Shown here piece after piece: positions 3,015 to 59,001 of a DNA stretch of 64,000 bases. The stretch is from Octopus vulgaris (taxonomy: Eukaryota): positions 46,376,001-46,440,000 of the forward strand of contig OX597825.1 in NCBI GenBank assembly GCA_951406725.2. Direction: 5' to 3'. The position numbers and the translations under genes were made by a program. Every line of letters begins with the position of its first letter. Within the stretch, counting starts at the first letter, position 1. The notes under the pieces were generated by a model. The model had not been told where the DNA came from. It did not search any database and worked only from the letters and a program-made list of their open reading frames with translations.

Positions 3015-3215
3015 TTGTCATCATCATCATCATCGATTAACGTCCGTTCTCCATGATGGCATGGGTTGGACAGTTTGACTGAAGTCTTGGAGAGCCAGCT
3101 GCTGCAACAGGCTCCAATCTAGTCTAGCATAATTTCTACATCTAAATGCCCTTCCTAACGCCAACTATTCTGAGAGTGTAGTGGGTGTTCTTTATGTCTC
3201 ATCAGCACAGGAGCC
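3015..3215 (-). mobile_element. RTE-type LINE/SINE 3' end with (GAT)n tail
   Basis: (CAT)n followed by ttaacgtccgttctccatgatggcatgggttgg; the same motif occurs inverted at 49170-49245. Confidence 0.6.
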
Positions 3216-3299
3216 AGCTAGCGGGTCACCGGCCCCCAGCTACGGTATTGGTTTTACTTGACTCAAGCATACTGCAAGCTTACGTATGTCCTCGGCATT

Positions 3300-8275: not shown

Positions 8276-8489
8276 TGTTATGTGTAGTTTGGGTTCTAAT
8301 GGGAAAGATAACCAGTTGAAAACCATGTTATTATTTGCGTGTTTTATTTACTATTCATGATACACGGACGACTACAGCGTAGTAATACATTATATACTTT
8401 ACTTACAGTTTGTACTGTTCACTAACAAATAGTGCCAAGAGTAGGGAGTAGTTTGGCATTTGCAAACACACACATATGAATGTGTAACA
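8276..8489 (-). mobile_element. 3' LTR of a Ty3/gypsy element
   Basis: TGTTA...TAACA termini; minus-strand PPT AAGAAGGGA immediately before it; TATA-like and AATAAA motifs in the minus sense. Confidence 0.7.
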
Positions 8490-8583
8490 TCCCTTCTTGA
8501 AAAAAATAAAGGGGCCTCTTGGCAGTGAAGACAACTATGAGTAGTTTCCCTTGCTCTATGGATTGTCATCATTTTTTTTTTCT

Positions 8584-10830: not shown

Positions 10831-11136
10831 TGGTTAGGGGTGGGAGAAGGGTATCTTTTTTTCTTCACAAATGTAAATAAACCCAATCTGTTTCTTAAAC
10901 GAGGGACATATTCACAATGTACAGAATGCTTTCACCTCAATAGATAGTCATTGATTGGTTGAAATTGCCGAAATGCAAGAAATTAAAGACGAAATATGTT
11001 ACAAACTACAGAATTTTCTCAAGAAAGCCAAGAGAAAATGATGTTTTATAAATACATTCTACTAGTATACGAAGTTTTAAATTTTTTAGTTACCTAGAAA
11101 TTATGTTAAAAACTGCCGTTCAAACCGAAAAGATCC
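10831..11136. mobile_element. Partial copy of the GGATC-ended foldback/MULE-like MITE
   Basis: Closely similar to 12490-12797 and ends AAAAGATCC; a matching left end is at 8187-8275. Confidence 0.75.
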
Positions 11137-11214: not shown

Positions 11215-12957
11215 AGCGTTTTGACCCGAGCAAAAAAACCCAAAAAAGAATAGTGTAATAAGTGTAAAACAACTTGCTCTAAACGAATATGAAAAAAAAT
11301 GTGCACTCGCGAAAGGGGGATGGGGAGAGAATTCGAACTGTCTGTATAAAGAGTAATAAAAAAAAAGTTAAAAGAGTGGAAAGTTTTGTAAATAGGGGCA
11401 GGGTAAGGTTGAATATTTAAGTGAATTTGCAGGGTGTAAAATATTTGTAAGCAATTCCAGAACAACAAAAGCTGTTACTTTCACTGCAAAATTTAAATTT
11501 CGTTTGTGTCTAAATATTTTCATTCTTTGAAACCATGGCGAAACTCTGACAAAAACTCGTGCTGCATCTGTTTTGTCAGTGAACAAGTCTCGGTTTCAAA
11601 GCGACAAAAATATCGAGATTGAAATGAAACCAACTGTTTCTCTTTGTTTTTTGTTTTGTGTGTGTGTGTGTGTGTGTGTTCTTTCTTGAATGGCTTACAA
11701 ACCCCTACTCTTCAAATTGTTTTACACCAATTACACTATTTTTTCTTTTCTTGGGGGGGGGGGCTCGGGTCAAACACTATAGTTCAAAGGCCATGGTCTT
11801 TTTTTTTTTTTCCATATACGTTTAAAGCAAGTTGTTTTACATCTATTACACTATTTTTCTTTTGTTTCTTGGCTTTGGTGAGGTGACTACGATGTGAATT
11901 TTCCGAGTCCTCTCCTCCACCCCCTTTCACGAGTACACATTCTTTTTTTCATATACGTTTAGAGCAAGTTGGGATCTTTTCCTTTTGAACAGCACTTTGT
12001 AACATAATTTCTAGGTAACTAAAAAGTTTTAAACTTCGTATACTGGTAGAATGTGTTTATAAAACATCATTTTCTCTTGGCTTTATTGAGAAAATTCTAT
12101 AGTTTGTAAGATATTTCGTCTGAAATTACTTGCATTTCGGCAATTTTAACCAATCACTGGAGTCCATTTAGGTAAATAACATTCTGTGCATAATGAATAT
12201 GTCCCTCGTTTAAGAAACAGATTGGGTTTATTTACATTTGTGAAGAAAACAGATACCCTTCCCCTAACCCTAACTAACCCTAACTCTAACCCTAAATCTA
12301 AAATAGATTGAAATGCAATAGATCGATACTAGGGTTATAATTATGGGTGACAATTTCATACAACACCGCTACGGAAAATGGGATTTTTTCTAGCGGTGTC
12401 AAATGAAAATGTCACCCATAATTATGGCCCTAGTATCGATCTATTGCATTTCAATCTATTTTAGATTTAGGGTTAGAGTTAGGGTGAGTTAGGGTTAGGG
12501 GTTGGGGAAGGGTATCTTTTTTTCTTCACAAATGTAAATAAACCCAATCTGTTTCTTAAACGAGGGACATATTCATTATGCACAGAATGTTATTTACCTA
12601 AATGGACTCCAGTGATTGGTTAAAATTGCCGAAATGCAAGTAATTTCAGACGAAATATCTTACAAACTATAGAATTTTGTCAATAAAGCCAAGAGAAAAT
12701 GATATTTTATAAACACATTCTACCAGTATACGAAGTTTAAAATTTTTTAGTTACCTAGAAATTATGTTAAAAACTGCCGTTCAAACCAAAAAGATCCGAT
12801 GTTTTATAAACACATTCTACCAGTATACGAAGTTTAAAACATTTTAGTTACCTAGAAATTGTTACAAAGTGCTGTTCAAAAGGAAAAGATCCGCAAGTTG
12901 TTTTACACCTATTACACTATTTTTCTTTTCTTTTTTTTTTGCTCAGGTCAAACGCTT
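11215..12957. mobile_element. Foldback-type element with about 125-bp inverted ends, hosting nested inserts
   Basis: 11215-11340 is the approximate reverse complement of 11900-11971 joined to 12901-12957. Confidence 0.5.
11972..12892. mobile_element. Palindromic foldback MITE (MULE-like) with 8-bp TSD and TTAGGG-like repeats
   Basis: Terminal inverted repeat GGATCTTTTCCTTTTGAACAGCACTTTGTAAC; TSD GCAAGTTG at 11964-11971 and 12893-12900; about 400-bp arms centred near 12380. Confidence 0.85.
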
Positions 12958-17639: not shown

Positions 17640-18590
17640 CAATTTTACTTTCTACTGAAAACACTTTAGAATTTTTTTCCATTTGATCTTCTGCAGTATG
17701 AACTCTTGTGTCCAAATTTTTGACAACTGTAATATTTTTGATTTTTAAAAGGACAATCTTTTCTGAAATGTAGGCCTCCACATCCATAACATGGATTAAG
17801 ACCTAGCAATCTTCTTTGGTTATACTTTCTTGGTTGACATATCTGTATTTTTGCGAAATCCTTTACTTGAATTTTTCTTACATTGTGTTTTAGGTTCAGC
17901 ATCCATTGACACTCTTCTGCAACAATCTGCAGGGTTAAATCTTGGTTTTCTTGTTCAACTTTTGAAAGAATTCTTGCCTGTTATTCTGTATCGGCATTTG
18001 CTGTAAGGCCTTGTACAAAAATGAGGCACTTAAATATCTCAGGAGTAAATTCTTTAAGTTTAAAACTTTCACACATTCTGCTGACTGTTCCTGCATATGT
18101 AATAAAGTCATAGTCCTCTTTTTTTTTTTAGTTAAATTCCAACAATCCATTCGGATGTTAAATAGAGAAGTTTTATCACCAAACATGCTAGACAGTAATT
18201 TGATTGTTTCCTGAAAATAAATTTCACTAGACTTTTTGGGCAATATGAAATTACAGTATCGTTCATGCTCAGACGGAGCTAATTTAAATAATGCAAACCT
18301 TACTTTTTCTTTATCCGACCATGTTTTGCAATCTTCCTTAAAAATCTCCTCATACCTTCTGTAGTTTGCTGCAAAAATTATTCCCTCATGTGGGTTATAA
18401 CTGAATTCCATTATGGAGTTCGATATGCTGTCCAATGAAAACAAACTTACCTCATTCTCGGAGTTCTTTGCATATAGTGCCAATAATTGTTGTTGTAGTT
18501 GTTGCTGTACTAGTTGCTTCTACAACTCCTGTTGCTGTTCTTGTTGCTTTTGCAGCTGTATTATAGAAGCTAATAGATCTTTCATCATTT
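17640..18590 (-). pseudogene. Ty3/gypsy gag relic with zinc knuckles
   Basis: YRRYEEIF...LLSSMFG...R and CYGCGGLHFRKDC / CQKFGHKSSYC; frameshifted. Confidence 0.8.
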
Positions 18591-24117: not shown

Positions 24118-24384
<267 letters not shown>

Positions 24385-27300
24385 TGATTGATTGATTATT
24401 GATTGATTCTAGTTTCAGCTTATGAGCTGTGGCCATGCTGGGGCACCGCCATTTGGTGTTGCTACTTGGTTTCACTTCATGGAGGCTTTCTAGCAACTGC
24501 TATTTGGTGCATGAGAGAGTTCGATGCAGCTGCCCTCATCTGCCCCTCCTGCCGTGAAGTTGGTTCATCTGGGACACCTGACAGGAAGAGATCCAGTTCC
24601 ATTTTAAAGACATCTGTATCCACCCCATGCAGGTCTCTCAGGTTCTTCGGGAGGATATTGAAGAGCTGTGGGCCTCGGAAGCCCAGGCTATCACAGAATC
24701 TTGTCCTACATCTTGATGGCAAGTTTGGAGTCCTAGGCACCACGCAGTGGCGCCCAGTTCTGGCATTTGCGTAACTCTCAATACCAAAGTTCAGGACACT
24801 TCCCTCCAGGACCTTCCAGATGTATATTATGGCGTATCTTTCCCGCCTACGCTCCAGGGAATATAATTTTAATCTCTTGAGTCTTTCCCAGTAGCTTACA
24901 TTCTGCATAGAGGCTATCTTCTTCGTGTAGCTTCGTTGGATCGCCTCAAGTTCTGTGATCAACTTGACACTGGATGGTGACCATAGCTGAGAGCAATAGT
25001 CAAAGTGGCTTAGGACAAGTGTCTTCCAGAGGACCATCATGGTTTCTTGTTCTCTTGTTCTAAAGGTTCTAAGAATCCATCCAGCCAGCCGTCTGCATTT
25101 CATTGTCAGTTTAGCAACATGTACATGAAAGGTCGCGTCATCACTCATGTGAATACCCAGGTCACGCACTGATTGTGCCTCTGGGATTGCAATCCCTCCG
25201 GGTCCAGTGTATTCATTGGGTATTGCATTCAGTTTTGCATGCTGATAGTATAAAGCTTGAAACTTTTCAGCATTGAACTGCATGCTATTCTTTTCAGCCC
25301 ACTTGTATATTTCGTCCAGCTCATATTGCAGGTGCTTAGTGTCTTCAGGGTTCTGTATTGCCTGTGAAACTTTTGTATCATCTGCATAACTTGTGATCGT
25401 GGCTCTCCGCGTGGCTGAGGGCATGTCTGAGAGGGCCATTATGAACAGTAGTGGTCCCAAAACAGTGCCCTGTGGAACACCGCTCACTATTTGCGTGCTA
25501 ATGGAAGTGACCCCATTGGCTGCTACCACCTGACTTCTATTCTTCAGAAAGTCATGAAGCCATTCTCCTAGTTTTCCAACTATGCCAAGATCACGCAGTT
25601 TGTGACATATCATTCCATGATCGACTTTATCGAAGGCCTTTGCGAAGTCGAGATATATGACTTCCACATTTGAGTGGTTGAGCAGTTGTTTCAGCACCCA
25701 GTCATAGTGCTGCAGGAGCTGAGTTAAGCAGCTTCTTCCTGGTCGGAAACCATGTTGGGTGTCAGGTAGCAAGTCATTTTCTTCAAGGAAGGTGATTAGT
25801 TTCCTTCTGACTATTCGTTCCATGACCTTGCTGATGTGTGAGGTCAGAGAGATAGGTCTGTAGTTCTTGGCCTCCGCTCTGCTACCTCCTTTATGAATAG
25901 GGCATATTTTACCTTCCTTCAGTTTTCTTGGAAGTTTGCCAGCTGCAAGGAAGCTCTGAAAGAGGAACTGCAGTGGTCTTGCTAGGACTCTCTTACATAC
26001 TTTTAGGAGGATTGCCGGGAATCCATCGGGGCCAATAGCTGAGTCTATTTTCATTTCATCTATAGCCTTTATTACATCGTCTTCCTTTATATCGATGTAA
26101 TTTATCGTCGCCGCCTCTGATTCTATATCTGCAGTGGTAAAGAAGTCAGTTGGATTGCTGATTTGGAAATGCCCAAGGGGTGGAGTGAAAACACTCTTGA
26201 ATTGTTCATTCAGTATTTCACTTACCCTCATTGGTTTTCCTGTGAGTGTGCTATCCTTTTCAAGGAGTGGCCCTATCCTACAGTGCACCGTAGCTGTTTC
26301 TTTGGCATACCTGTAGAAAGCTCTGGGGTTAGTTTTTATGTTGTCTATAGCCCAGGCTTCTTTGTCTGCTCTTTCCTTCTCATGGGAGAGTTGCAGACAA
26401 TTTTCAATTTCCAACAGTTTTATTTTCAGGCGGGACTTTTCACTGCTTTCAATTTGTTTGTTTAGGCGATTTGAAATTTTTGTACGCCGTCTCATTAAAA
26501 TTTTCCTCTCTCTGGGGATTTTGTTCTTGTGTACAGTGGCCTTTCTCTCTGGGACACATTTGTAGCATATGGCTTGCATTACAGACATGAATTGTTGAAG
26601 TATCATGTCGATGTCCGGCGAGGAGAGACATTCAGGCCAGTTTTGTTTGAGGATCTCTTTCTCAATTTGTTTCCAGTTTGCCTTATTGAAGTTCAAGCTG
26701 GAAAGATTCTGAGGGTTTCTTGTAGGCTGCATGTCCGTGCTCTCTTTTGGCCCGTACATGGTCAGCTCTACCATGTTGTGATCCGAGAGTAGTGTCGGTG
26801 TCACTTTCACATTATGGATGAGATCCATATTATTTGTGAAGCAGAGATCCAGTGTGTTACCTGCTCTGGTTGGTTGGAGTATTACTTGCTCCATGTACAG
26901 GGTGTTGATGAGGTTCAGGAGGGACCTCGCCTGTCCTCGTTCACATCTTGTCATTCCTGGGAGAGAAAGGCCCTCGGGCCATCTGACATTGGGTAGATTG
27001 AAGTCTCCCATGAGAAGTACACTTATGTGTTGTTCTAATGTGGTTAGAACTTCTTCTATTTTTAAAAGGCAGTCCTCAAACTTGCCCATATGACTTGGGG
27101 CATCTGGAGGGCGATATGTAGCACACACAACTACATCAAGTTGCCTTATGTGTACAATTAGTGTGTCACACACCGAGTTTGAGTATGACAAAAGGACCTG
27201 GGGTGTGAGGTCCCCACGGATGTACATAGCAACTCCTCCATGACTCCTTTCTTTCCTGTCGGTCCGTAGTACAACATACTGTGGTATGTGTAATTCCGCA

Positions 27301-27752
27301 TCTGCTATGTCCGGTTTCAGATGCGTTTCTGTGAGTGCTATGCATAAGGCTTGATTGCATGCGACAAAGTTTCTCAGGAACGGGACTTTTGTCCTGTTAC
27401 TGTGTGTTAGTAGTCCTCTGATGTTCAGTAGGTGCATCGAGGTGAGATGTATGCTGTTGCCGGCGGTGTCCACCCTGGGTCCATCTGCTGTGGCAGTCTT
27501 GTGAACCGTGGGCAGTTCCATCTGCGAGCCTGAGCCTGATGGAGCCAGGTTAGCTGCTGTACAATCTTTTGTGCCATGCACAAAAAAGATTCCTGCTCAG
27601 CAGCTGCCCTTTCAACAACACGTTGGTGGTTTGTGGTACGCACCACATCTGCGTACCTCCGTTTTGGGGCAGGTGATGCGTGGTCCATCCTATTTCCTTT
27701 CGGTGGTTGGTTTCTGTGGCAGGGTCCCGGATGTGCAAAGCGGCAGCCTGCA
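24385..27752 (-). mobile_element. CR1-clade LINE copy 1, 5'-truncated within ORF1, (ATCA)n tail
   Basis: Intact ORF2, 3' stem motif GGCGGTGCCCCAGCATGGCC, flanked by (TA)n. Confidence 0.92.
24477..27581 (-). CDS. LINE ORF2: APE endonuclease plus reverse transcriptase (uninterrupted)
   Basis: LNIRGL, LTETHL, YRPP, GDFN, LDL, SDH; NYRPISLTS, YLDFAKAFDKV, GVPQGTVLGP, YADD, RYSLERRR-like C-terminus. Confidence 0.95.
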   Translation of the reverse strand: MHGTKDCTAANLAPSGSGSQMELPTVHKTATADGPRVDTAGNSIHLTSMHLLNIRGLLTHSNRTKVPFLRNFVACNQALCIALTETHLKPDIADAELHIPQYVVLRTDRKERSHGGVAMYIRGDLTPQVLLSYSNSVCDTLIVHIRQLDVVVCATYRPPDAPSHMGKFEDCLLKIEEVLTTLEQHISVLLMGDFNLPNVRWPEGLSLPGMTRCERGQARSLLNLINTLYMEQVILQPTRAGNTLDLCFTNNMDLIHNVKVTPTLLSDHNMVELTMYGPKESTDMQPTRNPQNLSSLNFNKANWKQIEKEILKQNWPECLSSPDIDMILQQFMSVMQAICYKCVPERKATVHKNKIPRERKILMRRRTKISNRLNKQIESSEKSRLKIKLLEIENCLQLSHEKERADKEAWAIDNIKTNPRAFYRYAKETATVHCRIGPLLEKDSTLTGKPMRVSEILNEQFKSVFTPPLGHFQISNPTDFFTTADIESEAATINYIDIKEDDVIKAIDEMKIDSAIGPDGFPAILLKVCKRVLARPLQFLFQSFLAAGKLPRKLKEGKICPIHKGGSRAEAKNYRPISLTSHISKVMERIVRRKLITFLEENDLLPDTQHGFRPGRSCLTQLLQHYDWVLKQLLNHSNVEVIYLDFAKAFDKVDHGMICHKLRDLGIVGKLGEWLHDFLKNRSQVVAANGVTSISTQIVSGVPQGTVLGPLLFIMALSDMPSATRRATITSYADDTKVSQAIQNPEDTKHLQYELDEIYKWAEKNSMQFNAEKFQALYYQHAKLNAIPNEYTGPGGIAIPEAQSVRDLGIHMSDDATFHVHVAKLTMKCRRLAGWILRTFRTREQETMMVLWKTLVLSHFDYCSQLWSPSSVKLITELEAIQRSYTKKIASMQNVSYWERLKRLKLYSLERRRERYAIIYIWKVLEGSVLNFGIESYANARTGRHCVVPRTPNLPSRCRTRFCDSLGFRGPQLFNILPKNLRDLHGVDTDVFKMELDLFLSGVPDEPTSRQEGQMRAAASNSLMHQIAVARKPP

Positions 27753-27782
27753 TATATTATATATATATATATATTATATTTA

Positions 27783-27817
<35 letters not shown>

Positions 27818-27821
<4 letters not shown>

Positions 27822-30800
27822 TTTGATTTTGATTTTGATTTTTCCAGTTTCAGCTAATGAGCTGTGGCCATGCTGGGGCACCGCCATTTGGTTTGCTACA
27901 CGATTTTACCTCACGGATGCTTTTTAGCAAACGCCATCTGATGCATGAGAGAGTTCGATGCAGCTGCCCTCATCTGCAGCTCCTGCCGTGAAGTTGGTTC
28001 ATCCGGGACACCTGACAGGAAGAGGTCCAGTCCTACTTTAAAGAAATCCGCATCTACACCATGCAGGTCCCTCAGGTTCTTTGGGAGGATATTGAAGAGC
28101 TGTGGGCCTCGGAAGCCCAGGCTATCACAATATCTTGTCCTACATCTTGATGGCAAATTTGGAGTCCTTGGTACTACGCAGTGGCGCCCGGTTCTGGCAT
28201 TTGTGTGACTCTCGATGCCAAAGTTTGAGACAAGTCCTTCCAGGATCTTCCAGATATATATTATGGCATATCTTTCTCACCTACGCTCCAGGGAATAGAG
28301 CTTTAATCTCTTGAGTCTTTCCCAGTAGCTCATATGCTGCACAGAGGCTATCTTCTTCGTGTAGCTTCGTTGGATCTCCTCAAGTTCTGTGATCATCTTG
28401 ACACTGGATGGTGACCATAGCTGAGAGCAATAGTCAAAGTGGCTTAGAACAAGTGTCTTCCAGAGGACCATCATGGTTTCTTGTTCTCTTGTTCTAAAGG
28501 TTCTAAGAATCCATCCAGCCAGCCATCTACATTTCATTGCCAGTTTAGCAACATGTACATGAAAGGTCGCGTCATCACTCATGTGAATACCCAAGTCACG
28601 CACTGATTGTGCCTCTGGGATTGCAATCCCTCCGGGTCCAGTGTATTCATTGGGTATTGCATTCAGTTTTGCATGCTGATAGTATAAAGCTTGAAACTTT
28701 TCAGCATTGAACTGCATGCTATTCTTTTCAGCCCACTTGTATATTTCATCCAGCTCACATTGCAGGTACTTAGTGTCCTCAGGGTTCTGTATTGCCTGTG
28801 AGAATTTTGTATCATCTGCATAACTTGTGATTGTGGCTCTCTGCGTGGCTGAGGGCATGTCTGAGAGGGCCATTATGAACAGTAGTGGTCCCAAAACAGT
28901 GCCCTGCGGAACACCGCTCACTATTTGCCTGTTAATGGAAGTGGCCCCATTGGATGTTACCACCTGACTTCTATTCTTCAGAAAGTCATGAAGCCATTCT
29001 CCCAATTTTCCAACTATGCCAAGATCACCCAGTTTGTGACATATCATTCCATGATCGACTTTGTCAAAGGCCTTTGCAAAGTCGAGATATATGACTTCCA
29101 CATTTGAGTGGTTGAGCAGTTGTTTCAGCACCCAGTCATAGTGTTGTAGGAGCTGAGTTAAGCAGCTTCTTCCTGGTCGGAAACCATGTTGGGTGTCAGG
29201 CAGCAAGTCATTTTCTTCAAGGAAGGTGATTAGTTTCCTTCTGAGTATTCGTTCCATGACCTTGCTGATGTGTGAGGTTAGGGAGATAGGTCTGTAGTTC
29301 TTGGCCTCTGCTCTGCTACCTCCTTTATGCATAGGGCTATTTTACCTTCCTTCAGTTTACTTGGAAGTTTGCCAGTTGCAAGGAAGCTCTGAAAGAGAGA
29401 CCGCAGTGGCCTTGCTAGGACCCTCTTACATACTTTTAGAAGGATTGCTGGGAATCCATCGGGGCCAGTAGCTGAGTTTGTTTCCATCTCATCTATAGCC
29501 TTTATTACATCGTCTTCCTTTATATTGATGTAATCAATCATCTGACCCCATATCTGACCCCATATCTGCAGTGGTGAAGAAGTCAGTTGGATTGGTGATT
29601 TGGAAATGCCCAAGGGGTGGGGTGAAAACACTCTTGAATTGCTCATTTAGTATTTCACTTACCCTCATTGGATTTCCTGTGAGTGTGCCATCCCTTTCAA
29701 GGAGTGGCCCTATCCTACAGTGCACCGTAGCTGTTTCTTTGGCGTACCTGTAGAAATCTCTGGGGTTAGTTTTTATGTTGTCTATAGCCCAGGCTTCTTT
29801 GTCTGCTCTTTCCTTCTCATGGGAGAGTTGCAGACAATTTTCAATTTCCAACAGTTTCATTTTCAGGCGGGACTTTTCACTGCTTTCAATTTGTTTGTTT
29901 AGGCGATTTGAGATTTTTGTGCGCCGTCTCATTAGAATTTTCCTCTCTCTGGGGATTTTGTTCTTGTGTATAGTGGCCTTTCTCTCTGGGACACATTTGT
30001 AGCATATGGCTTGCATTACAGACATGAATTGTTGAAGTTTCATGTCGATGTCCGGCGAGGAGAGACATTCAGGCCAGTTTTGTTTGAGGATCTCTTTCTC
30101 AATTTGTTTCCAGTTTGCCTTATTGAAGTTCAAGCTGGAAAGATTCTGAGAGTTTCTTGTAGGCTGCATGTCCATTGTTTCCTTTGGCCCGTACATGGTC
30201 AGCTCTACCATGTTGTGATCCGAGAGTAGTGTCGGCGTCACTTTCACATTATGGATGAGATCCATGTTATTTGTGAAGCAGAGATCCAGTGTGTTACCTG
30301 CCCTGTTTGGTTGGAGTATTACTTGCTCCATGTACAGGGTGTTGATGAGGTTCAGGAGGGACCTCGCCTGTCCCCGTTCACATCGTGTCATTCCTGGGAG
30401 AGAAAAGCCCTCGGGCCATCTGACATTGGGCAGGTTGAAGTCTCCCATAAGAAGTACACTTATGTGTTGTTCTAATGTGGTTAGAACTTCTATTTTTATA
30501 AGGCAGTCTTCAAACTTGCCCATATGGCTTGGGGCATCTGGAGGGCGATATGTAGCACACACAACTACACCAAGTTGCCTTACATGTACAATTAGTGTGT
30601 CACACACCGAGTTTGAGTATGACAAAAGGACCTGGCGTGTGAGGTCCTCGCGGATGTACATAGCAACTCCTCCATGACTCCTTTCTTTTCTGTCGGTCCG
30701 TAGTACAACATACTGTGGTATGTGTACTTCCGCATCCGCTATGTCCGGTTTCAGGTGTGTTTCCGTAAGTGCTATGCATAAGGCTTGATTGCATGCAGCA

Positions 30801-31430
30801 AAGTCTCTCAAGAACGGGACTTTTGTCCTGTTACTGTGTGTTAGTAGTCCTCTGATATTCATTAGGAGCATCGAGGTGAGGTGTATGCTGTTGCCGGTGG
30901 TGTCCACCTTGGGTCTATTTGCTGTGGTGATCTTGTGAACTGTGGGTAGTCCCATCTGTGAGCTTGAGTTTGATGGAGCCAGGTTAGCTGCTGTACAATC
31001 TTTTGTGCCATGCACAAAAAAGATTCTTGTTCAGCAGCTGCCCTTTCAACAACACGTTGGCGGTTTGTGGCACGCACCACATCTGCGTACCTCCGTTTTG
31101 GGGCAGGTGGTGCGTGGTCCATCCCTTTTCCTTTCGGTGGTTGGTTTCTGCAGCAGGCTCCCGGATGTGCAAAACGGCAGCCTGCACCTTCCTCTCCATG
31201 TCGGCAGGCACCTCTCAGGTAGAACCTACATACCCGTGTGCGCTGCTTAGGTTTGCTTCTATCCTTGGCTGTTTCGTTTTTGGGTTTTAGTTTTTCCTCC
31301 TTTTTTGGTTCTTTCATCTCCATGTCCATGGCTTTTGGTGCCGGTAGGAGCACCCGGACTTGGGTTTACCTCCCGGGCAGGTTTCTCACTGGAGTTTTCT
31401 CCCTGGGCGTCTACCAGGTGGTGGTGACCT
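27818..31430 (-). mobile_element. CR1-clade LINE copy 2 (CCCH ORF1, frameshifted ORF2), (AAAATC)n tail
   Basis: ORF fragments 29534-31015, 29278-29646, 28277-29332 and 27911-28156 are highly similar to copy 1. Confidence 0.92.
30862..31353 (-). CDS. Short LINE ORF1 with a CCCH zinc finger
   Basis: [23 protein letters not shown] and YADVVR; homologous to 40764-41429. Confidence 0.7.
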
Positions 31431-34789
<3,359 letters not shown>

Positions 34790-37674: not shown

Positions 37675-37680
37675 TTATTT

Positions 37681-37715
<35 letters not shown>

Positions 37716-37743
37716 TATATATATATTTATATTTATTATATAT

Positions 37744-40700
37744 CTCTTTTACTTTTACTTTTACTTGTTTCAGCCATCCGGCTGAGGCCATGCTGGGGCA
37801 CCGCCCTTGTTGCTACCCTCTCTAAGTCCAGTTTGCCGTGGCTGGCCACTGATCTAAGAGAGAGTTTGTAGCTGCTGCCCTTAGGTTACCTTCGTACCTT
37901 GCAGTGGGTTCATCTGGGATCCCGGAAAGCAGCTTGTCTAGATATTTTTTGAAAATGTCCACATCCGCATCATGTAGATCTCTTAGTTTTCTTGGCAGTT
38001 TGTTGAACAGCTGAGGGCCCCTGAACCCCAGGCTATTACAGTATCTGCTCCTTACCCTGGATGTGGAAGACGGGACCTTTGGCACCACACAGTGACGTCC
38101 TTTACGGGGATTGGAACAGCTCTCAATTCCAAAGTTTGGTGCTAGTCCCTCCAGGATTTTCCATATGTATATCACTGCATATCTCTCTCGTCTTCGTTCC
38201 AAGGAGTACAAATTGAGTTCCCTAAGCCTCTCCCAATAGTTCTTTTCTTTCATGGTGGAAATCCTCTTGGTGAAATGTCTTTGGATTGTCTCAAGCTCTG
38301 TGGTTAGTTTGACACTATGCGGTGACCACAGTTGGGAGCAGTAGTCCAGGCGGCTTAGGACAAATGTCCTCCATAGTGTCAACATGGTCTCGCAGTCTCT
38401 TGTCCGGAATGTCCTCAGGATCCAGCCAGTGAGTCGTCTGCACATTGTCGCCACCTTCGCGATGTGTGAAGAAAAAGATGCATCGTCACTCATGTCTATC
38501 CCCAGGTCCCGTATTGATTTCGATACTGGGATTTCGATCCCTCCTGGACCAGTATAGTTGTGTTGTAATGTATATGTGTTTACAGCTTGATATTGTAAGG
38601 CTTGAAATTTACCAGCATTAAATTGCATGTTGTTGTCTTCAGCCCATTTGTATATGGCATCCAGATCTTGTTGTAAAAGGTCAGCATCAGCTGGGTTTTT
38701 GATTGCCTGTGCTACCTTTGTGTCATCAGCATAGCTAGTGAGGGATGTTGTTTGTGCTACCAAGGGCATGTCAGAGAGCGCCACCAAAAACAGCAAGGGT
38801 CCCAAGACTGTGCCCTGTGGCACCCCGCTTGCTATTGGTGTCTTTCCCGAGAGGGCTCCATTGGCTGCAACCATCTGGCTTCTGTCCTTCAGGAAGTCAT
38901 GTATCCACTCACCTACTTTTCCTGTTATGCCGAGTCTGAGTAATTTGTGACATATCACTCCGTGGTCGACTTTGTCAAAGGCCTTCGCAAAGTCGAGATA
39001 TACCACATCCACCTGTGAGCGATCCAGTAGTTGTTTCAGTACCCAGTCGTAGTGTTGTAACAGCTGCGTAAGGCAGCTTCTTCCTGGGCGAAAGCCATGC
39101 TGTGTGTCAGTGAGACGGTTAGTTTCTTCGAGGAACGTGATCAGTTTTTTTCTGATGATTCGTTCCATGACCTTACTTATGTGTGACCTCAGGGAGACTG
39201 GCCTGTAGTTTTTGGCCTCTGCTCTACTCCCTCCTTTGTGGATAGGGCATATGGTGCCTTCTTTTAGCGCCCTGGGCAGTTTACCGTTAGCCAAGGAACC
39301 ACTGAAGAGCTTCTTCAGTGGTCCCGCTAGGGCATGCCTGCATGTTTTTAGGAGGACTGCTGGGAATCCATCTGGTCCAGCAGCTGAGTTTATTCACATT
39401 TCTTCTATGGCAGATATTACATCCCTCTCTGTCATGTCTATGTGGTCGATGGTTGTTGTTTGGTTTTGGAGTGTTGTGGCATCAAAGAAAACTTCTGGGT
39501 TTGTGATTTGCATGTGCCCCAGAGGGGATGTGAACACACTTTTATACTGTTCCTTTAGTATTTCACTTATCCCTTGGGGGTCGTCAGTTAGAGTGCCCTT
39601 TTTATCAAAGAGTGGGCCAATCTTGCAGTGTACCGAGGTGGTTTCTTTCGCAAATTTAAAGAAGGCTTTAGGGTTTGTTTTAATATTCTCTATGGCCCTG
39701 GCTTCTCTCTCTGCCCTCTCCTTCTCATAGGAAAGTTTGAGTGCAGTTTCCGTTTCAAAAAGTTTCAGGTGGAGTCCCTCATTGTTTCTCTGCCGTGCAT
39801 TCAGTTGCTTCGAGAGCTTAGCTCTTCGCCTCATAAGTATTTTCCTGTCTCTGGGAATAACGTTCCTATGCTCGCTGGCTTTTTTCTCCGGGACAAACTT
39901 ATGGCATATGTTCTGTATTGTTGTCATGAAATGTTGGAAATGTGTGTTGGTGTCTTGTGTGGTGATGAAGTCACTCCAGTCATGTTTTCGGATCTCTTCG
40001 TTGATCTTCTTCCAGTTTGCCTTATGGAAGTTTAGACTGGATAGGCCTGTGGTATTTTCTAATGGCTGCGTCTCAACTAACTCTCTCATACCATATATCA
40101 TTACCTCTACTAAGTTGTGATCTGAGAGAATTGTTGGTGTTACCATTATGTTGTGGATGAGCATCGGGTTGCTTGTGAAACAGAGGTCCAAGACATTCTC
40201 ACCTCTTGTTGGCCGAAGCACTGCTTGCTCCATGAAAAACTTGCGTGTGAGAGCCAACAAGGACTCTGTCTGTCTCTGTTCAAGTGATGTAATTCCAGGG
40301 AGGAGATGGCCATCTGGCCATTTGACTTTCGGAAGGTTAAAATCTCCCAGCAGTAGAATGGTGTTACCCTGGTCCAGTTTGTCCAGGACTTCTTCTATTC
40401 TTCTGAGGCTATCTTCAAACACTCCTTCATGACTAGGGGTGTCTGGTGGCTGATATGTGACACATATTACTATTTTCGGTTGTTTCATGTGTACTATCAG
40501 TGTGTCACAGACTGAGTTTGAGTGTGTCAACAGTACTATGGGTGTGACATCTTCACGGACGTACAGGGCAACCCCACCATGAGTTCTTTCCTTCCTGTCT
40601 GACCGAAAAACAGTATACTTTGGTATGTGTATTTCTGCATCTGCTATACTGCTTGACAGGTGCGTTTCAGTCAGCGCTATGCATATTGCATGGTTGCTTG

Positions 40701-41446
40701 TGCTTAAGTCCCTAAGGTGAGGAATTTTACTCATATTAGTGGGTTTCACCAGACCTCTGACATTCAGCAGAAGCACTGGTGAGATATTTGGGGTGTCAAT
40801 AAAGACTGAAGGTGTGGCACCTGGGCTGGTGTCAGCGGTGGCCACCCTGGGTCCCTTGATTGTGGTGGTCTTGAGTGCTGTTGTGAGTGCCCCTGGCTCT
40901 GAAGACGATGTATCCAGGCCAGTTGTCCCACAATTTTCTCTGCTATTTCCACAAAATTTCTTTGTTCTGCTGCCGCCGTCTGCATTTCCTCTGCAAATGT
41001 GCGCCTTCTCCTTGTTGGGGCATTACGCACTATGTCTGCATATTTCTGGGGCAGCTTGTATTTGTTCTGGTTTTGGTTTCGGTCTTGGTTTTGGTTAAGG
41101 CATTTTGGTCGAGTGGGTTTGATGCAATTTCCATAGGGCCTGGGATGAGCGAACCTGCATCCTTCCCCTGTTTCTCCATGCCAGCAGGTTCCATTCCGGA
41201 AGAATTTGCATGTTATCTGGGTTTTCTTGTCCCCAGTTCCTCTCTGTTTTTTCTTCCTCCGTTGGACGGTTGTCCACTGGTTCCTTTCTGCATAGGTATT
41301 TTCATCCGGGTGGTTATTTTCCGTTTCCCCATCGCCGCCTATCTGTTGTTTGCCCTGCTTGCCTTCTTCGACTGTGGCAGTGGGCGTGTCATTTTTTGAC
41401 ACTCTGTGGTTGGTGTTTCCTGTTTCCATCTCTCTCTCTTTGTCTT

Positions 41447-41447
<1 letters not shown>
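37744..41447 (-). mobile_element. CR1-clade LINE copy 4 (divergent family), near full length, one ORF2 frameshift near 39395, (AAAAGT)n tail
   Basis: ORF1 40764-41429 (CCCH), EN 39394-40845, RT 37822-39294 with YADD. Confidence 0.92.
40764..41429 (-). CDS. LINE ORF1 with a CCCH zinc finger
   Basis: ATG start; CKFFRNGTCWHGETGEGCRFAHP and KYADIVR. Confidence 0.7.
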   Translation of the reverse strand: METGNTNHRVSKNDTPTATVEEGKQGKQQIGGDGETENNHPDENTYAERNQWTTVQRRKKKQRGTGDKKTQITCKFFRNGTCWHGETGEGCRFAHPRPYGNCIKPTRPKCLNQNQDRNQNQNKYKLPQKYADIVRNAPTRRRRTFAEEMQTAAAEQRNFVEIAEKIVGQLAWIHRLQSQGHSQQHSRPPQSRDPGWPPLTPAQVPHLQSLLTPQISHQCFC

Positions 41448-41485
<38 letters not shown>

Positions 41486-41959: not shown

Positions 41960-42032
41960 TATATATATATCTTCTTTATCTTCTTTATCCCCGTCTGTCT
42001 TGATAGACAATGGGTTGCGCCAAGGGTGGGGC

Positions 42033-45000
42033 CTACTTTGATGATGTGCAGCGTCTGCTGTGACTGAACAGTCCAATTCTAGAGTGGCAGTCCTTGGTAC
42101 AGTTGCTGCACACGAACATCGATGGGTACGTGTAGGGTGTTGCTGCAGTTGTCCTCCTCCTGTCCCGCCTGTCCAACCACAGCTGTGCTCTCCTCTCCTC
42201 AGCCATGGAAACGCCTTTCCTCACCGTCCGACGCCAGGCAGAGCGGTCAGCAGCTGTTTCCTCCCACGTGTCCACACAGATGTTGGCAGTCCTCAGGTCG
42301 CGCTTGCACACGTCCCTGTATCGTAGCTGTGGATGTCCCTTGGGTCGGGATCCCGTGGTGAGTTCGCTGTACAGGATGTCTTTAGGCATGCGACCGTCCT
42401 GCATGCGGCAGACGTGTCCGAGCCAGCCCAGTCGTCTCCGCACGAGGAGGGCATACATGCTTGGCATATTAGTCTGTTCCAGGATGACTCCGTTTGGTAC
42501 TCGGTCCTTCCAGGAGATGCCAAGGATCCGTCGAAGACACCGCATGTGGAAGCCGCTGAGGCGGCATTCCTGCCGGGTGTATGTTGTCCAGCTCTCGCTA
42601 CCGTAGAGTAGGGTGCTCAGCACGCAGGCTCGGTACACTGCGATCTTGGTGGTTATTGTGAGCATGTTGTTTTCCCACACTCTTCTGGAGAGCTTAGCCA
42701 TGGCAGCAGCAGCCTTCCCAATCCGTCTGTTCAGCTCCGGCTCGAGGGACAGGCTGCTGGAGACCGTCGATCCCAGGTAAGTGAACTCGTTCACCACCTG
42801 CAAGCTGTGGTCGCCGACACTGATGCTGGGGACCCCTCCGACGTCCTGGCCCATGATCTCTGTCTTTTTCAGGCTGATGGTAAGGCCGAACTCTTGGCAG
42901 GCATCCGCCAGGGAGCTGACCAGCCTCTGGAGACCCGGTTGGTTGTGTGATGTTAGGGCGGCATCGTCAGCAAAGAGGATCTCTCTGATCAGCACCTGAC
43001 GGACTTTGGTCTTAGCTCTGAGGCGCGCAAGATTGAACAATCCACCATCAGCCCTGGTGTGGAGGAACACTCCGTCGTCGGACGTTCTGAAGGCATAGGA
43101 CAGGACAAGGGAGAAGAAAATTCCGAAGAGCGTCGGCGCTAGAACGCAACCCTGTTTCACTCCACTCTGGATGGGGAATGACTCCGAGGGCGATCCGTCA
43201 AACTGCACTGTTCCCTGCATACCGTCGTGAAAGGAGGTGATGAGTTTCAGCAGTCTGGGAGGGCAACCTATCCTACCCAGGAGCGCAAACAGCCCCTCCC
43301 TGCTGACTGAGTCGAACGCCTTAGCCAGGTCGATGAAGGCCACGTATAGGGGCTGTCTCTGTTCTCGATTCTTTTCTTGAAGCTGCCTGAGTGAGAAGAT
43401 CATGTCAATTGTAGACCTCTCTGCCCTAAAGCCAGACTGAGACTCGGGGTACACACGCTCTGCAAGTATTTGCAACCTCTTCAGGACCACCCTGGCAAAT
43501 GCCTTGCCGACCGTGCTGAGCAGTGATATGCCCCTGTAATTATTACAGTCGCTTCTGTCCCCTTTGTTTTTATACAGTGTGATGATGTTTGCGTCATGCA
43601 TATCCTTAGGGACAGAGCCCTCCTCCCAGCACTGACAGAGCAGCTCGTGGAGATGGCCCAGAAGGGCTGGCTTCCCGCACTGGATGACTTCTGCGGGGAT
43701 GCCGTCTTGCCCTGGTGCCTTGCCCCGAGCGAGTGAGTCAATTGCTTTGCTCAGTTCTTCCTTTGTTGGAGGCAGGTCAAGCTCCTCCATGACAGGCAGA
43801 GCAGGAATGCCGGCGAGGGCAGACCTGGTGACCACATTCTCAGTGGAGTAGAGGTTCTGGTAATGCTCGACCCACCTCTCCATCTGCTTCGCTTGGTCCT
43901 TGATGACCTCGCCATCTCTGGACTTCAGTGGAGCAACCTTTCTGACAGTGGGCCCGAATGCTTTCTTCATCCCCTCATACATCCCTTTCATGTTACCACT
44001 GTCAGCACAGCACTGGATGTTCTGGCATAAGTTCTGCCAGTAGATGTTGGCGCAACGTCTGGCCGTCCTCTGGGCGTCGCTTCTGGCTGTTCTCAGAGTA
44101 GCCAGGTTCTTTTTTGATGGGTCGCACTTATAGTTGACCAGTGCTTCCCTCTTGGCAGCAATGACAGGCTCCATCTCAGGCAGGTGAGCTTCAAACCAGT
44201 CTTGATTTCTCCGCTCCCTCTTTCCTAGGGATGACATGGCTATTCTGCAAGTGGTGTCGCGAATAATCTGCCATCTCTCCTCGATGGACGTGGCTGCGTG
44301 ATCTTTAAGGGCCTCCTCCATGCGGTTGGTGAATTCCGAGCGGAGGTCGGGGTTGGTTGTCCTGGCGGTGTTGATGCGTGGGCGGCTTTTCCCTACGGGA
44401 CGGTTGATTTTCTTTGGGGCCAATCGGACCCTGCTGCACACCAAAGAGTGGTCTGTATCACAGTCAGCACCATGGTAGCTGCGTGTGAGAAGCACACTGC
44501 TGAGGTGGGCTCGCCGGGTGATGACCATGTCCAGTTGGTGCCAGTGTCCGGACCTTGGGTGCCTCCATGAGACCTGGTGATGCGGCTTAGTCATGAAGAA
44601 TGTGTTGGAAACGCAGAGTTTCCGGTAAGAGCAAAGCTCCAACAGTCTCTGGCCATTCTCATTCACCTTCCCCACGCCAAAGCGTCCAAGGCAATCTGGT
44701 CATGCCCCATGATCGGATCCCACCCTTGCGTTGAAGTCGCCCAGAAGGAAGATGGGCTCCGACCCTGGTATCTGGCTGATGGTGGCGTCGATCTCCTCAT
44801 AGAACCGGTCTTTTATTTCCTGAGGAGAGTGGAGTGTTGGGGCATAAGCACTAATTATGTTTGCCTTCCCCGTTGATGTTGCAAGGTTAAGAGTGAGGAT
44901 GCGCTCTGAGCCATTTGAAGGAGGGATCACCATGGGGAGCAAGCTGTTCCCCACGGCAAACCCCACGCCATGCTGGCGGGCCTCCTCGACGGGTCTCCCC

Positions 45001-45284
45001 TGCCAGTAGAAGGTGTAGTCCTTCTCCCGTAGCATGCCGTCTGTGGCGAGCCTGGTCTCTTGCAGCGCCGCTATGTCGATGTTCAGCCTTTTCAATTCGG
45101 TGTTGATGACTGCTGTCTTCCTACTGTCGTTCATCTGTCGTATATCGTCAATGATGCCAGGGCACATGGTCCTGACATTCCAGGTGGCCAGTCGCAAGAC
45201 TGGTGACTGGGTATTTGTTTTTCCTTTGTTTGCTGGTGCAGGGTTTTCAGTCTGCTTTTCAGATTTTGTCCTAGCTCCAATCAC
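42033..45284 (-). pseudogene. RTE EN+RT ORF interrupted only by one TGA (44700-44702)
   Basis: ATWNVRT, LQETR, YAPT, GDFNARVG; NYRGISLLS, GVKQGCVLAP, FADD; C-terminal CSNC...HSRIGLFSH; both ORF pieces are in the same frame. Confidence 0.92.
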
Positions 45285-45848
45285 CCATTGAAGCGGGCAG
45301 TCTGTGGCAGGTCAGCACCATTATTGGCCGGGGGCTGCCCAGCTTAAGGCGGGCGGTAGCTGACCAGTGGGACTTCAATGATCCCTCCCACCGTTAGAGA
45401 CGGGCCGTAGCGCCCGGGATTACGCCAATTCACCCTGGCTTATAACTCGTAACTGCCATCTCAGCTTGTTCCATCGATGGAGTAGTTTCTCCATGGCGCA
45501 AGCCTGGGCGGTAGAAACGAAGACACTGGGCTGCCCAGACACCAGAATCTCCCTCTCGGCCCCCCAGACATAATCCAAAGGAATGCAGTGCAGTACGTTT
45601 GGAGTCTGGTTGGCTGCAGGAGTTGCCGGAAAGGGGTCGAGATTCGACACCCTACCGCCTTCGGGGCTCCGCTCCGGATTTTCTGTCTGGGTTTACTCCC
45701 ATAGCCTTTCCCTCTCCCAAGAGCATCCGCAAGGCAGCGGAGCGAGGGTTTGGAGTCAGAGTTTTCCTTCTCCTAGACTGGCTGCCAACCAAGGCTAACG
45801 AGCCCAGTCTGCCCACCTGGTTATACCGCCAAGCACCCGGTCGCGCCA

Positions 45849-46029
45849 CACAGCAGGCTCAGTGAGAACAGGGGGTACCGCGTGAAGGTGCTGCTGTGGA
45901 CACAGTAGTGCAGGAGAGGCCATTAGCAAGAACTTTCTGCAAGGCGCAGCCAAGTAGAAGTTCTGCAGCGATCATTACACCTGGAGAGGAGAGGCTATGA
46001 GTGACGCAATAACTTTCCTTTGCCCCCCC
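45849..46029 (-). ncRNA. HDV-like ribozyme at the RTE 5' end
   Basis: P1 GGGGGGC/ACCCCCT, P2 CACAGCAGC/GCCTGCTGTG, P3 ACC/GGT, L3 TTCACGC, J4/2 CTGA; long J1/2 and no clear P4. Confidence 0.72.
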
Positions 46030-47651
46030 TATATATATATATATATAAAACACAATGTAAGAAAAACAATACCTCAATATATATCTAGCCAACCCAATCT
46101 AATCTCGAAAATAGATGGGAAATGAATGAACAAAGTTGTTTGTGAATAAATCACCATTTACACCATATTTTTATGGAATTAAATAGCATTTTCTGTCATT
46201 ATTAACAAGAGAACAGCTAATAGACATAGTTCCACCAAAAGTACACATATAAAGTCTGTAGTAATTTATTAACCAATGATATTTTATTGATTCATTCTAC
46301 ATAGATATATTTAAATGATATATTTTTAAAATATATGTCTTCATAAGTCTTTATTTAGTTGAAAGTTGAAAACTCATTAGACAATTTCTTCAGTTTCAAA
46401 ACTTCAAATTCATACTGAGAGTAAGGATTTCTGTTTGCACAAGTCAGCCAAGAAACCTATATAGTTGTTCACTCTTTTATAAATGTCAACCAAATCTCTT
46501 TCAAATTATGTCTTACCATCCTGACAGTAAGAAGGGCACAGTACTTAATGTAACCTAGGATACTCTACAGGTTTAAAAATATTAAATGGATAGTCACAAC
46601 TGGAACAGTGTTGATCATAGATCTAATTAAGCTGAACTAAGGCTAAACAGCAACTTTTGTTTTTCAATGTATTGCAACTGGCTTAAAAAAAAAAAACAGG
46701 TGATAGGATTACTCAAAAAGATTAAAAGATTGACATATTTACTGTTATCTTACTAAGACATCAATAAACTGTGACTTATATAGTTAGGGATTAAATCATT
46801 ATGAAATGTTGCTCTGTAGACACTTCATAGAATATATGTTAATCTCATAACATTTTACTTTTTGGCCACATGCCATTACTCTTTACTCATTATATCATAC
46901 ATTGTATGTATTGAATGAGATTACTTTGATCATCACACCATATGACACAATAATCTTCTTAATTAGACTTTTCATTTCCTCTATACACTGACAAGTCACT
47001 GGAAGAAGAAATAACATTTTGCAACTGATTCACATACTTATAATGGATATTAATGTGAATCCCCAAAGGTTAGCAAACTATTTCATTTAAAAAAATATAT
47101 TTTTCATTTAAAAAAAAGTGTCTACAAAAATATGATTTTTTCTGTGTATGTCTATATGTATTTATTATTGTTTTTGTGAATGCATGTGGATATATCCTGT
47201 TTGTATTTATGTGAGCATATGTTTATACTCACATCAAATTTTAAAAATTCCTATTTTTCAACAAAAAGAAACACAATCATCCTCATCATTGTCACTATTT
47301 TAACCTCATTTTCTCTACTGACATGGACTGAATGGAACTGTGGCATAGCAAATGTTCTGCATCTTATTATCTTGTCTTTAAGGTCTAACATATCAAAATT
47401 TCAGACTGATTCTGGGGTCTTTAGATGACAACTTCTTTTTTTAAACTGGTAACAGAATTATTATTTGCATTCATTGTCAAATGGAAGCATGTATTCTAGA
47501 CTTTTAGTAGATTGATGGAGTCCTGGTAGATTAATCAGCTTTTATTTCACCAATATAATTTGTTTGATAAAGTTTTTGCGACAGCATTTTGATATTATTT
47601 GCATTTTGTAAGCATTCATTTACTGGTAGTGATATTTTATCTACCATGCAG

Positions 47652-47712
47652 TGTTGTCTTGTTCTATCAAGGATATGGAATGTTGTCTTGTTCTATCGAG
47701 GATGTGGAATGT
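47652..47712. repeat. 29-bp tandem duplication
   Basis: tgttgtcttgttctatc(a/g)aggat(a/g)tggaa occurs twice. Confidence 0.85.
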
Positions 47713-48358
47713 TCAATTGACTAGTTATTCTTGAAATAGTTTGTGGGGATGAGGTGAACTGGAAGGAAAGGGCTGTGATGTCAACAGTTGAAGAGGAAGA
47801 GGGAATGACAAAGTGAAGACCAGCATGGTCCTCTTTGACTTGGAGGCAGTTGTGGTTAATAGATGCATGTCGATGTGAGAGCAAGATAGGGCTTTAGCAG
47901 TATCTACTAGTGATAGGTGAGACAGGTAGGGCACATCTTGGATTTAACACAGCTGGACAGCTACACTAAGAGGCAGATGAACTGTATTTTGTTCCTCAGA
48001 TTACAGTTCCCTCACACTGCATAGTTCACACTGTGGTCTTTCAATTTCCATACATGTTTCTCTTTTCCTAATACTTTATGGAAATGACTTTGTAACTAAA
48101 TACACTTCCTCCATATCTTTTTCAGAGATAGAACCGCCCAACTTTTAGTTGTGGGTTTTATTATTAACTTAGTAGATTTCTTATAACATAAGAGGGATCA
48201 GCCATCTGAATGTGGCTAGGGTCAGGGCGGGGTGGTGGGGGTGTTACTGATGCATTTAGCCCCAGGCGAACATCGACGTCACCAGAAGAGCTGACACCAT
48301 CTCGGTGTCCTTGCCAGCCAGCAAAGGGAGATCAGCCTCCCCGAAGATACGGATACTA

Positions 48359-57780: not shown

Positions 57781-59001
57781 TCTTTATATATAAGAGTGAA
57801 GTTGTGTGTCTGTCTCCTACGATTTAGATTCGTAACTACTCCCACATTTTGCGGTGTAGTTTAACCAAAAGCGGGTATCTTATAGTCGTGATTCATATCG
57901 AGCCCTTCTGGGTATTAGCGCGCGTCTACGATGAGTCTACGATTTTAAAAAAATTTACCATCATATTTTTCCATTTTAATGCATATTTTTCGTTATTATA
58001 TAAGGGAAGTAACTCTCTAAAAATATCTACGATGTGTCAACGATTTAAAAAAAAAAATTACCTTAATTTTTTTTCAATTTTTAATGCAGTTTTTTGCTAT
58101 TTTTTGGCTATAACTCTCTAAAAATGCTTATATAGTTATTTCCCTTACAAACCCGAGCAACGCCGAGCGTGTGTGTATATATTTCCATAGAGGTAACCAT
58201 TCACTCCATACAAAGTTTTTTAGGACGAAAATAAGATCTAAAGTTATCTCTAAGAAACAGAAAGATCGCCCAAAAGTGTATATAGATATTTAAATGTATT
58301 TATATATTCATCTATACACACTTGTATATTTACCATCATTTTTTTCCATTTTAATGCAAATTTTTTTTAATAAAGGGAAGTAACTCTCAAACTTCACACC
58401 AATATGCGTGCTCATATGCGACGTAATAACACATCAGCAGCATTTCCTCACACCCTCCTTGCACTTGGCGAAGGCAAAATACCAGGGGATGAAAATGGTA
58501 ATATTGCCATCGATTCCATTTGTACCATTGTTAAGACGCCTTCTGATCTGAGAGATGCAGTGTTCCCAGATCTACAAGCTAATTATCAGAATATGGATTG
58601 GATTGGCAAAAAGGCTATACTGGCCCCGAGGAATAAAACTGTTCACCATATTAATGATGAAATGCTAAAACTCATTCCTGGGGAAGTCTATGTATATCAG
58701 TCTATCGATACAACTCCTGACCCAGAGGACGTCATCAACTATCCAATAGAGGTACTCAATTCCTTTGAGCACCCCGGACTACCACCACACTTTCTCAAAC
58801 TTAAAGTTGGTGCCCCTATAATGCTCATCAGAAATTTGGTTCCCCCAAAACAATGCAATGGCACACGTTTGATCGTTAAGTCCTTTTCTCCCACCGTAAA
58901 CTTATATCAATATTTGCCTGAATAATCATCATAATTCAGTGCAATCATTAACAGTACTTTCAAGCAATTCAGCCCCGAGCAACGCCGGGCAATTCTGCTA
59001 G
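57781..59001 (+). mobile_element. Composite non-autonomous Helitron with a Pif1 helicase fragment (ORF 58404-58925)
   Basis: A|TC start, a truncated first terminator at about 58150-58168, then a second hairpin and CTAG|T at 59001; AILAPRN, GLPPH.LKLKVGAPIMLIRNL and CNGTRL motifs. Confidence 0.9.

Follow-up and report, generated by a model that had tools for sequence, protein, structure and literature searches.

Does the RTE-type retrotransposon on the minus strand of this octopus DNA begin with a self-cleaving ribozyme, and how far would such a ribozyme depart from those already described? We refer to the whole analyzed stretch of 64,000 nucleotides as the window. Judging from the analysis set out below, we give a probability of roughly 0.78 to the reading that the first 180 nt of the element fold as an HDV-like double pseudoknot lacking P4, likely self-cleaving, and that they constitute a working but possibly slow ribozyme.

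The element measures 4,059 nt (46029-41971, minus strand) and is bordered by (TA)n on both sides. Below the ribozyme-like head, the remaining 5' UTR (45312..45848, minus), compared by blastn with the loci of related elements, shows stretches of 67-80% similarity. It is followed by a single reading frame (42033..45311, minus) for an APE endonuclease, a reverse transcriptase and a C-terminal CxxC..HxxxC motif. PF03372 and PF00078 share a frame that is broken once, by a stop at 44702-44700; close homologs carry Trp there, so that the window copy is probably not autonomous. The 3' tail (41971..41989, minus) consists of two GATAAAGAA units (9 nt each) and then (TA)n. Among the best 120 protein matches listed, identities were 58-73% and the named homologs came from starfish, lancelet, shrimp, snail and fish. 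Two of the 10 homolog clusters contain members named craniofacial development protein 2-like, a name which we take to be a mark of the RTE/BovB endonuclease. No second copy of the element was found within the 64-kb window, and viral contigs yielded neither an endonuclease relative nor an exact match to two family motifs. The microsatellite-like 3' tail of the element is of a kind described as common in RTE (PMC9115989, accessible portions). We filed the element as RTE from its anatomy, the cluster names and its match to the descriptions in that source. Identity with the octopus element RTE-2_OV was considered and rejected, as none of 3 primers matched the window within 3 mismatches (12 LINE cloning primers are published).

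In the reading frame, the first ATG past the last upstream stop lies at 45167, some ten codons into the endonuclease domain and beyond the conserved WNVRT motif (45200-45165, minus), and many homologs (P0001-P0030) are called from the same Met. To be made in full, the protein would have to start at a non-AUG codon or by re-initiation from an overlapping 16-codon ORF at 45321, the ATG of which is absent from two related loci, L001 and L002.

By sequence inspection and a pair table, P1, P2, P3 and P1.1 occur in the correct order for an HDV-like nested double pseudoknot on the minus strand from 46029 to 45849. The G-run (46029-46023) comprises seven G and is followed by C46022. The 5' strand of P1 (46022..46028) takes six of these G and C46022, with G46028 as the predicted G1. 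Since L001 has six G plus a pyrimidine, the register with G1 at 46028, one G inside the run, is favored and most likely the right one. The predicted cleavage site would then lie directly 5' of G46028, leaving G46029 as one extra base beside the upstream (TA)n flank (46030..46046), within which a target-site duplication is indistinguishable from the microsatellite. The 3' strand of P1 (P1', 45870..45876, ACCCCCT) provides a G1.U wobble, five G-C pairs and a C.A mismatch at position 7. J1/2 (45899..46021) is 123 nt long and includes a hairpin at 45966-45926. P2 is built from a 5' strand at 45890..45898 and a 3' strand at 45849..45858, which form 8 contiguous base pairs (from 45898-45891) plus a junction pair, C45890-G45858, with C45857 bulged; the same arrangement recurs in L001 and in two further loci, L049 and L014. 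P3 (45889-45887 with 45879-45877, 3 bp) closes the 7-nt L3 (45886-45880, TTCACGC), which holds the equivalents of U20, U21, C22 and G25. P1.1 involves G45869-T45868 (U45868 in RNA) and consists of one C-G pair plus U.U. A 5-nt linker (45867-45863, TCTCA), equal in length in L001, replaces P4 and leads into J4/2 (45859..45862) with the predicted catalytic C45862 and the terminal A45859. A pyrimidine-paired G1, U20.G25 and C22-G37 are all present in both the window and L001. The fold also has weak points that add up, namely the C.A in P1, a P1.1 of one pair and the absent P4.

Most of this had been anticipated. An earlier note on this DNA had described an RTE-type element headed by a P4-less double pseudoknot, and all parts of that fold were found in place, including the G1-U wobble, the J1/2 of about 123 nt and its hairpin. 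Two details needed correction. The six G and C assigned to P1 do fit, but the run has seven G and G46029 is left over; likewise both P2 strands are present, but they pair as 8 bp plus one junction pair, with C45857 unpaired.

We then asked whether related elements carry the same head. Scans with the endonuclease alignment yielded 85 loci, 79 from metagenomes and 6 from genomes. A strict core scan and profile searches covered all 85, and a looser scan with inspection covered 42 of them. The strict scan returned one strong core, the head of L001, and weak cores in 5 other loci; the looser scan and inspection added L049, L002 and L014, and the profile searches added L055 (E 1e-11) and L036 (E 6e-7). 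The P4-less type was thus present in 3/85 loci (L001 intact, L049 and L055 decayed) and a P4-bearing type in another 3/85 (L002, L014 and the decayed L036), while many of the remaining loci were cut short on the 5' side, had other heads or were distant matches.

L001 belongs to a related element whose protein is 69% identical. Relative to the window, it replaces a C-G pair of P2 with U-A, the junction C-G with U.G and the C.A at P1 position 7 with U-A, and it keeps the 5-nt linker; its J1/2 is about 280 nt, enlarged by a hairpin of about 160 nt. L049 has altered 2 of 3 P3 pairs and the first P2 pair on both sides. It has also lost the P1 5' strand, its G25 is changed, and its P2 is interrupted by a (TTG)n microsatellite expanded within the 3' strand (about 3452-3490). 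Overall, U20-U21-C22, G37, the catalytic C and the terminal J4/2 A are kept in all four P4-less sequences (window, L001, L049 and L055), and the catalytic C and J4/2 A also in the P4-bearing L002 and L014, whereas G25 is lost in the decayed L049 and L055. A rise in G+C across G1 was found in both intact heads, from 0.26 to 0.52 in the window and from 0.26 to 0.66 in L001. With one intact homolog among 85 loci, the covariation rests on two to three sequences, and the P1 5' strand is comparable in L001 only. Within that frame, the pairings whose conservation the earlier note had made its test are kept, with compensatory pairs in P2 and P3 (L001, L049). Its catalytic C45862 is present and is C in L001, L049, L002, L014 and L055, the catalysis itself being a prediction.

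P4 is present in L002 (67% identity) and absent in L001, both of them close relatives, so that P4 is evidently open to gain and loss. A tree built from 31 endonuclease-side rows was compatible with either one or more than one origin of P4-less heads: 2 changes are needed, the starred branches force 1, and shuffles do equally well. Some observations on these loci are of separate interest. L004 (about 3075-3250) and L025 (about 110-210) carry a different 5' head in which no HDV-like core was found, so that heads vary between close relatives. The P4-bearing ribozyme of L014 has an L3 of 26 nt (3260-3285) instead of 7 nt. Finally, L080-L083 are RTE-type endonuclease matches of up to 63% identity on short contigs in bacterial genome records, and are probably host DNA carried into bacterial assemblies.

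Sequencing data revealed how the window copy compares with the rest of its family. The head was found in part in 20 of the 24 sequencing runs listed, 15 of them with half or more of its words, across four organisms. Runs X16-X20, X23 and X24, with a word share of 0.04-0.05, carry no weight as evidence. Contigs from 4 of the 24 runs (X3, X5, X9 and X10) were mapped onto the window, and in all four they cover the core, with the cover of X9 ending at 45923. Contig depths over core and flank were 724/17.5 (X3), 873/21.9 (X10) and 221-422/3.4 (X5), depth not being a copy number. The core depth of the three large runs is about 40-65 times that of the flank, and this is what a multicopy family gives. 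Between 45783 and 45923, no variant at 5% share was listed in the four runs; the absence of P4 and the form of the P1' strand and of J4/2 therefore belong to the family and do not reflect private damage of the window copy. Two differences (45938 and 45939) lie inside the J1/2 hairpin and a variant site, 45924, just after it, and no covariation was found inside the young family majority of the four runs.

The same contigs bear on where the family begins. Deep contigs reach 46001-46017, the repeat at 46018-46059 was passed over, and beyond it, starting at 46060, depth equals that of the flank, which places the family boundary somewhere within 46018-46059. One X3 contig crosses the junction of element and flank without differences, though X3 may be the very source of the window sequence, and in L001, L002 and L014 the G-run stands at the apparent element boundary. 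A family start at G1 is consistent with these observations. The earlier claim that the ribozyme starts exactly at the 5' terminus fits the place of the head beside (TA)n, but one extra G (46029) precedes it and the ends of other copies are located only to within 46018-46059. Further into the 5' UTR, a stretch of about 45 nt (45756-45802) is common to many diverged contigs whose ends run into other sequence, as if it were carried by other repeat families; SINEs are described as having taken up RTE 5'-UTR domains (PMC5786205, in part).

HDV-like ribozymes at RTE 5' ends are in print, as the earlier note had stated: the sections available of PMC6765202, PMC5786205 and PMC3774820 credit them to Ruminski et al. 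2011, and PMC5786205 names RTE as one of six LINE clades in which 5' ribozymes have been reported. The window ribozyme shares with them the type of element, the 5'-terminal position, the double-pseudoknot core and a proposed release from host co-transcripts, and differs from the related P4-bearing L002 and L014 in lacking P4. The earlier note had singled out the absent P4 and the long J1/2 as its outstanding features, but both have precedents. The R2 ribozymes of the silkmoths Bombyx mori and Samia cynthia have a J1/2 of 216-498 nt and no P4, and cleave in vitro; a C-to-U change abolishes their cleavage, and a J1/2 segment is needed for activity (PMC3774820, in the parts available). They are, like the window head, non-LTR 5' ribozymes with a long J1/2 and without P4. 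In contrast to the window element, which supplies its own G-run, they belong to the R2 clade and take the P1 5' strand from 28S rRNA. Similarly, an HDV-like ribozyme of the abalone Haliotis discus replaces P4 with 5 nt (PMC3774820, in part, citing its ref. 30); it resembles the window head in this linker and in its marine invertebrate host, is known here from a one-sentence description, and may belong to the same subfamily. With active silkmoth R2 ribozymes and the abalone ribozyme in print, the lack of P4 and the length of J1/2 are no novelty, and a P4-less RTE subfamily may already be contained in Ruminski 2011 or Webb and Luptak 2011.

Minimal HDV-like or theta ribozymes such as drz-Mtgn-1 also lack P4, and almost all are from gut phages, often 3' of tRNAs (PMC10879173, in part); they are compact and phage-borne, whereas the window fold heads a retrotransposon in repeat-rich eukaryotic DNA. 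The ribozyme drz-Agam-2, as far as it is described in the available part of PMC4908430, shares a large structured J1/2 and an extended P2, but its J1/2 is a stable P1.2 helix, whereas that of the window is no stabler than shuffled sequences (z = -0.78).

How might the element use such a ribozyme? According to the accessible text of a review (PMC6765202), RTE elements are without promoters and are released by ribozymes of this kind. For the element studied here, read-through transcription would enter from the host flank and the head would then fold, with C45862 as the presumed general acid and Mg2+ at the U45886.G45881 wobble, by analogy with the HDV family. Cleavage would likely occur just before G46028 and likely free the element RNA from read-through host transcripts. 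The 5'-OH product, again by that analogy, would be translated without a cap and serve as both message and template. Target-primed reverse transcription would copy the RNA up to G1, and under this proposal the genomic copy would begin at the G-run. The long J1/2 is likely a P1.2-type domain that would bring P1 and P2 together; structured or stable J1/2 domains and a long P2 are reported to speed cleavage (PMC4908430, in part).

The composition of J1/2 complicates this picture. A block common to L001, L049 and L055 (about 45995-45962 and 45925-45899, minus) flanks a variable hairpin; in the homologs it spans 344-434 of L001, 3326-3410 of L049 and, decayed, 7297-7210 of L055. Duplex energies and a pattern scan marked two pyrimidine tracts on the minus strand, the first (45981..45995) ending in CAG/G and the second at 45912..45920, as alternative partners of the G-run. 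Their duplexes with the G-run reach -15.8 and -15.7 kcal/mol in the window versus -13.0 for P1', and both are transcribed ahead of P1'. The free MFE fold takes the alternative pairing (z = 0.74, pseudoknots being outside the model), in which C46022 pairs with G. The order is reversed in L001, with -15.9 kcal/mol for native P1 versus -12.4 and -10.3 for the tracts. The tracts likely compete for the G-run, so that members of the family may cleave slowly or incompletely. When three J1/2 sequences were folded jointly with RNAalifold, 19 pairs resulted, of which 3 showed two-sided change; the covariation term was -0.88, too thin a basis for a structure. The tract at 45981 is the sole match to a pyrimidine tract plus YAG on the sense strand of the element and reads like a splice acceptor; no paper on RTE ribozymes with a splice acceptor or trans-splicing was found in the literature searched. 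Going by its letters, the block may be a P1.2-type scaffold, a decoy or a splice signal.

From these features comes the main rival to a working ribozyme, which we consider unlikely: the fold would be inherited and mostly silent, its G-run trapped by the J1/2 tracts, and the 5' end would come from a putative internal promoter or from splicing at 45981. The greater stability of the alternative pairing over native P1, the C.A mismatch of P1 that becomes a C-G pair in the alternative helix, and the retention of the tract with its CAG/G block in the window, L001 and L049, as the single such site in the element, all suit this reading, as does the double use of 77 nt of the L1Tc ribozyme as a promoter (Pr77; PMC8256844, in part). 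However, the catalytic residues and all pairings are retained in a young, abundant family, and L001 prefers native P1. Splicing at 45981 would moreover take out the G-run, which the genomic copy retains. A working, possibly slow ribozyme is our preferred reading.

A separate question, concerning origin only and compatible with a working ribozyme, is the resemblance to CPEB3. Core identity to the human CPEB3 template (bioRxiv 2022.09.22.508989) was counted by eye, with P4 and J1/2 excluded. The window matched at 36/49 positions, L001 at 35/49 and L049 at 27/42, versus 22/49 for the P4-bearing L002. The likeness that the earlier note had pointed out is thus real and a trait of the P4-less subfamily. 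Shared features are a P1 with a G-run, a 7-nt L3, a P1.1 of one G-C plus U.U, and the letters of P2. In contrast, the CPEB3 ribozyme has a P4 hairpin and a very short J1/2 where the window has a 5-nt linker and a J1/2 of 123 nt; its P3 differs and its P2 has no bulge. It also resides in an intron of mammalian CPEB3, while the window fold heads a multicopy retrotransposon. The C.A mismatch ending P1, proposed earlier as a further link, does not hold as one, because it is human-specific, with C7-G30 in chimpanzee (PMC4836649, in part) and U-A in L001. By our analysis, the window ribozyme would resemble the CPEB3 ribozyme in its working but is not a CPEB3 member.

Could the mammalian CPEB3 ribozyme nevertheless have been domesticated from an RTE ribozyme of the P4-less subfamily? 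Beyond the core counts, positions 45897-45891 (7 nt) equal CPEB3 positions 8-14, whose letters are not fixed by pairing alone; the P3 of CPEB3 is found in L049, and the close relatives L002 and L001 differ in whether they have a P4. Against this, the counts take paired strands twice and include about eight catalytic positions. L001 and L049 carry C instead of A23, two bases of CPEB3 correspond to one base plus a 3' bulge in the P4-less RTE heads, the mismatch is human-specific, and no Rfam CPEB3 match was obtained (45835-45915, E <= 10). High identity within the HDV fold also has a precedent, since the R2 core agrees with HDV at 21/27 nt (PMC8256844, in part). Descent is doubtful, and convergence more likely; the likeness most probably stems from the small number of sequences that such a fold permits. 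No paper stating a link between CPEB3 and RTE ribozymes was found in the literature searched. We are just as skeptical of a broader proposal, in which the P4-less RTE heads (window, L001, L049 and L055) form a distinct marine-invertebrate subfamily and the closest mobile kin of the CPEB3 ribozyme, itself a domesticated RTE 5' end, and the J1/2 block serves as an inbuilt switch, controlling cleavage through capture of the G-run.

The structural descriptor behind our chance estimates was composed after viewing the window sequence, so the resulting figures are optimistic and the homologs are the stronger evidence. It returned 2 cores in the window, the present one with a P2 of 9 bp and a weak one with a P2 of 6 bp. 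Cores with a P2 of at least 9 bp numbered 13 in 399 block-shuffled windows (0.033 per 64 kb) and 8 in 44,598 shuffles of the 830-nt head of the element itself, and loose cores (P2 of at least 6 bp) occurred at 0.53 per shuffled window. Rfam scans of 44000-48000 and 45835-45915 (E <= 10) gave chance-level matches only and no self-cleaving ribozyme family; those of L001, L002, L014 and L049 (E <= 5) gave no ribozyme match, missing the P4-bearing L002 and L014 as well. That the fold is a chance match in a G+C-rich UTR is highly improbable: the descriptor was tuned on this very sequence, loose cores are frequent in shuffles and weak ones turned up in 5 other loci, but the rarity among UTR shuffles, the location at the first bases of the element and the recurrence of the fold in L001 and L049, where changes are compensatory, already largely refute it.

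The host genome is AT-rich, and the surroundings of the element are rich in other repeats. Another APE+RT LINE family occupies 24308-33467 and 37676-41452, with a trio of related copies and a fourth that is more distant; every copy is on the minus strand, sits in (TA)n and has short tandem tails, and the descriptor scan found no HDV-like core in them. Counting the RTE element, five LINEs stand in line within 22 kb. An LTR-type pol fragment (RT, RNase H and integrase zinc domain) lies at 8399-10833, short telomere-like repeats at 12263-12498, a DUF7083 fragment at 17935-18519 and a Pif1 2B-domain fragment at 58374-58925.

In summary, the window contributes an RTE family, young and abundant, that naturally carries a P4-less ribozyme of predicted activity, and such heads are useful for testing how J1/2 domains compensate for a missing P4. 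If the likeness to CPEB3 were due to descent, they would offer a concrete donor for a memory-linked mammalian ribozyme. Should the J1/2 tracts act as a gate on cleavage, the element itself would adjust how readily it is released from host transcripts.
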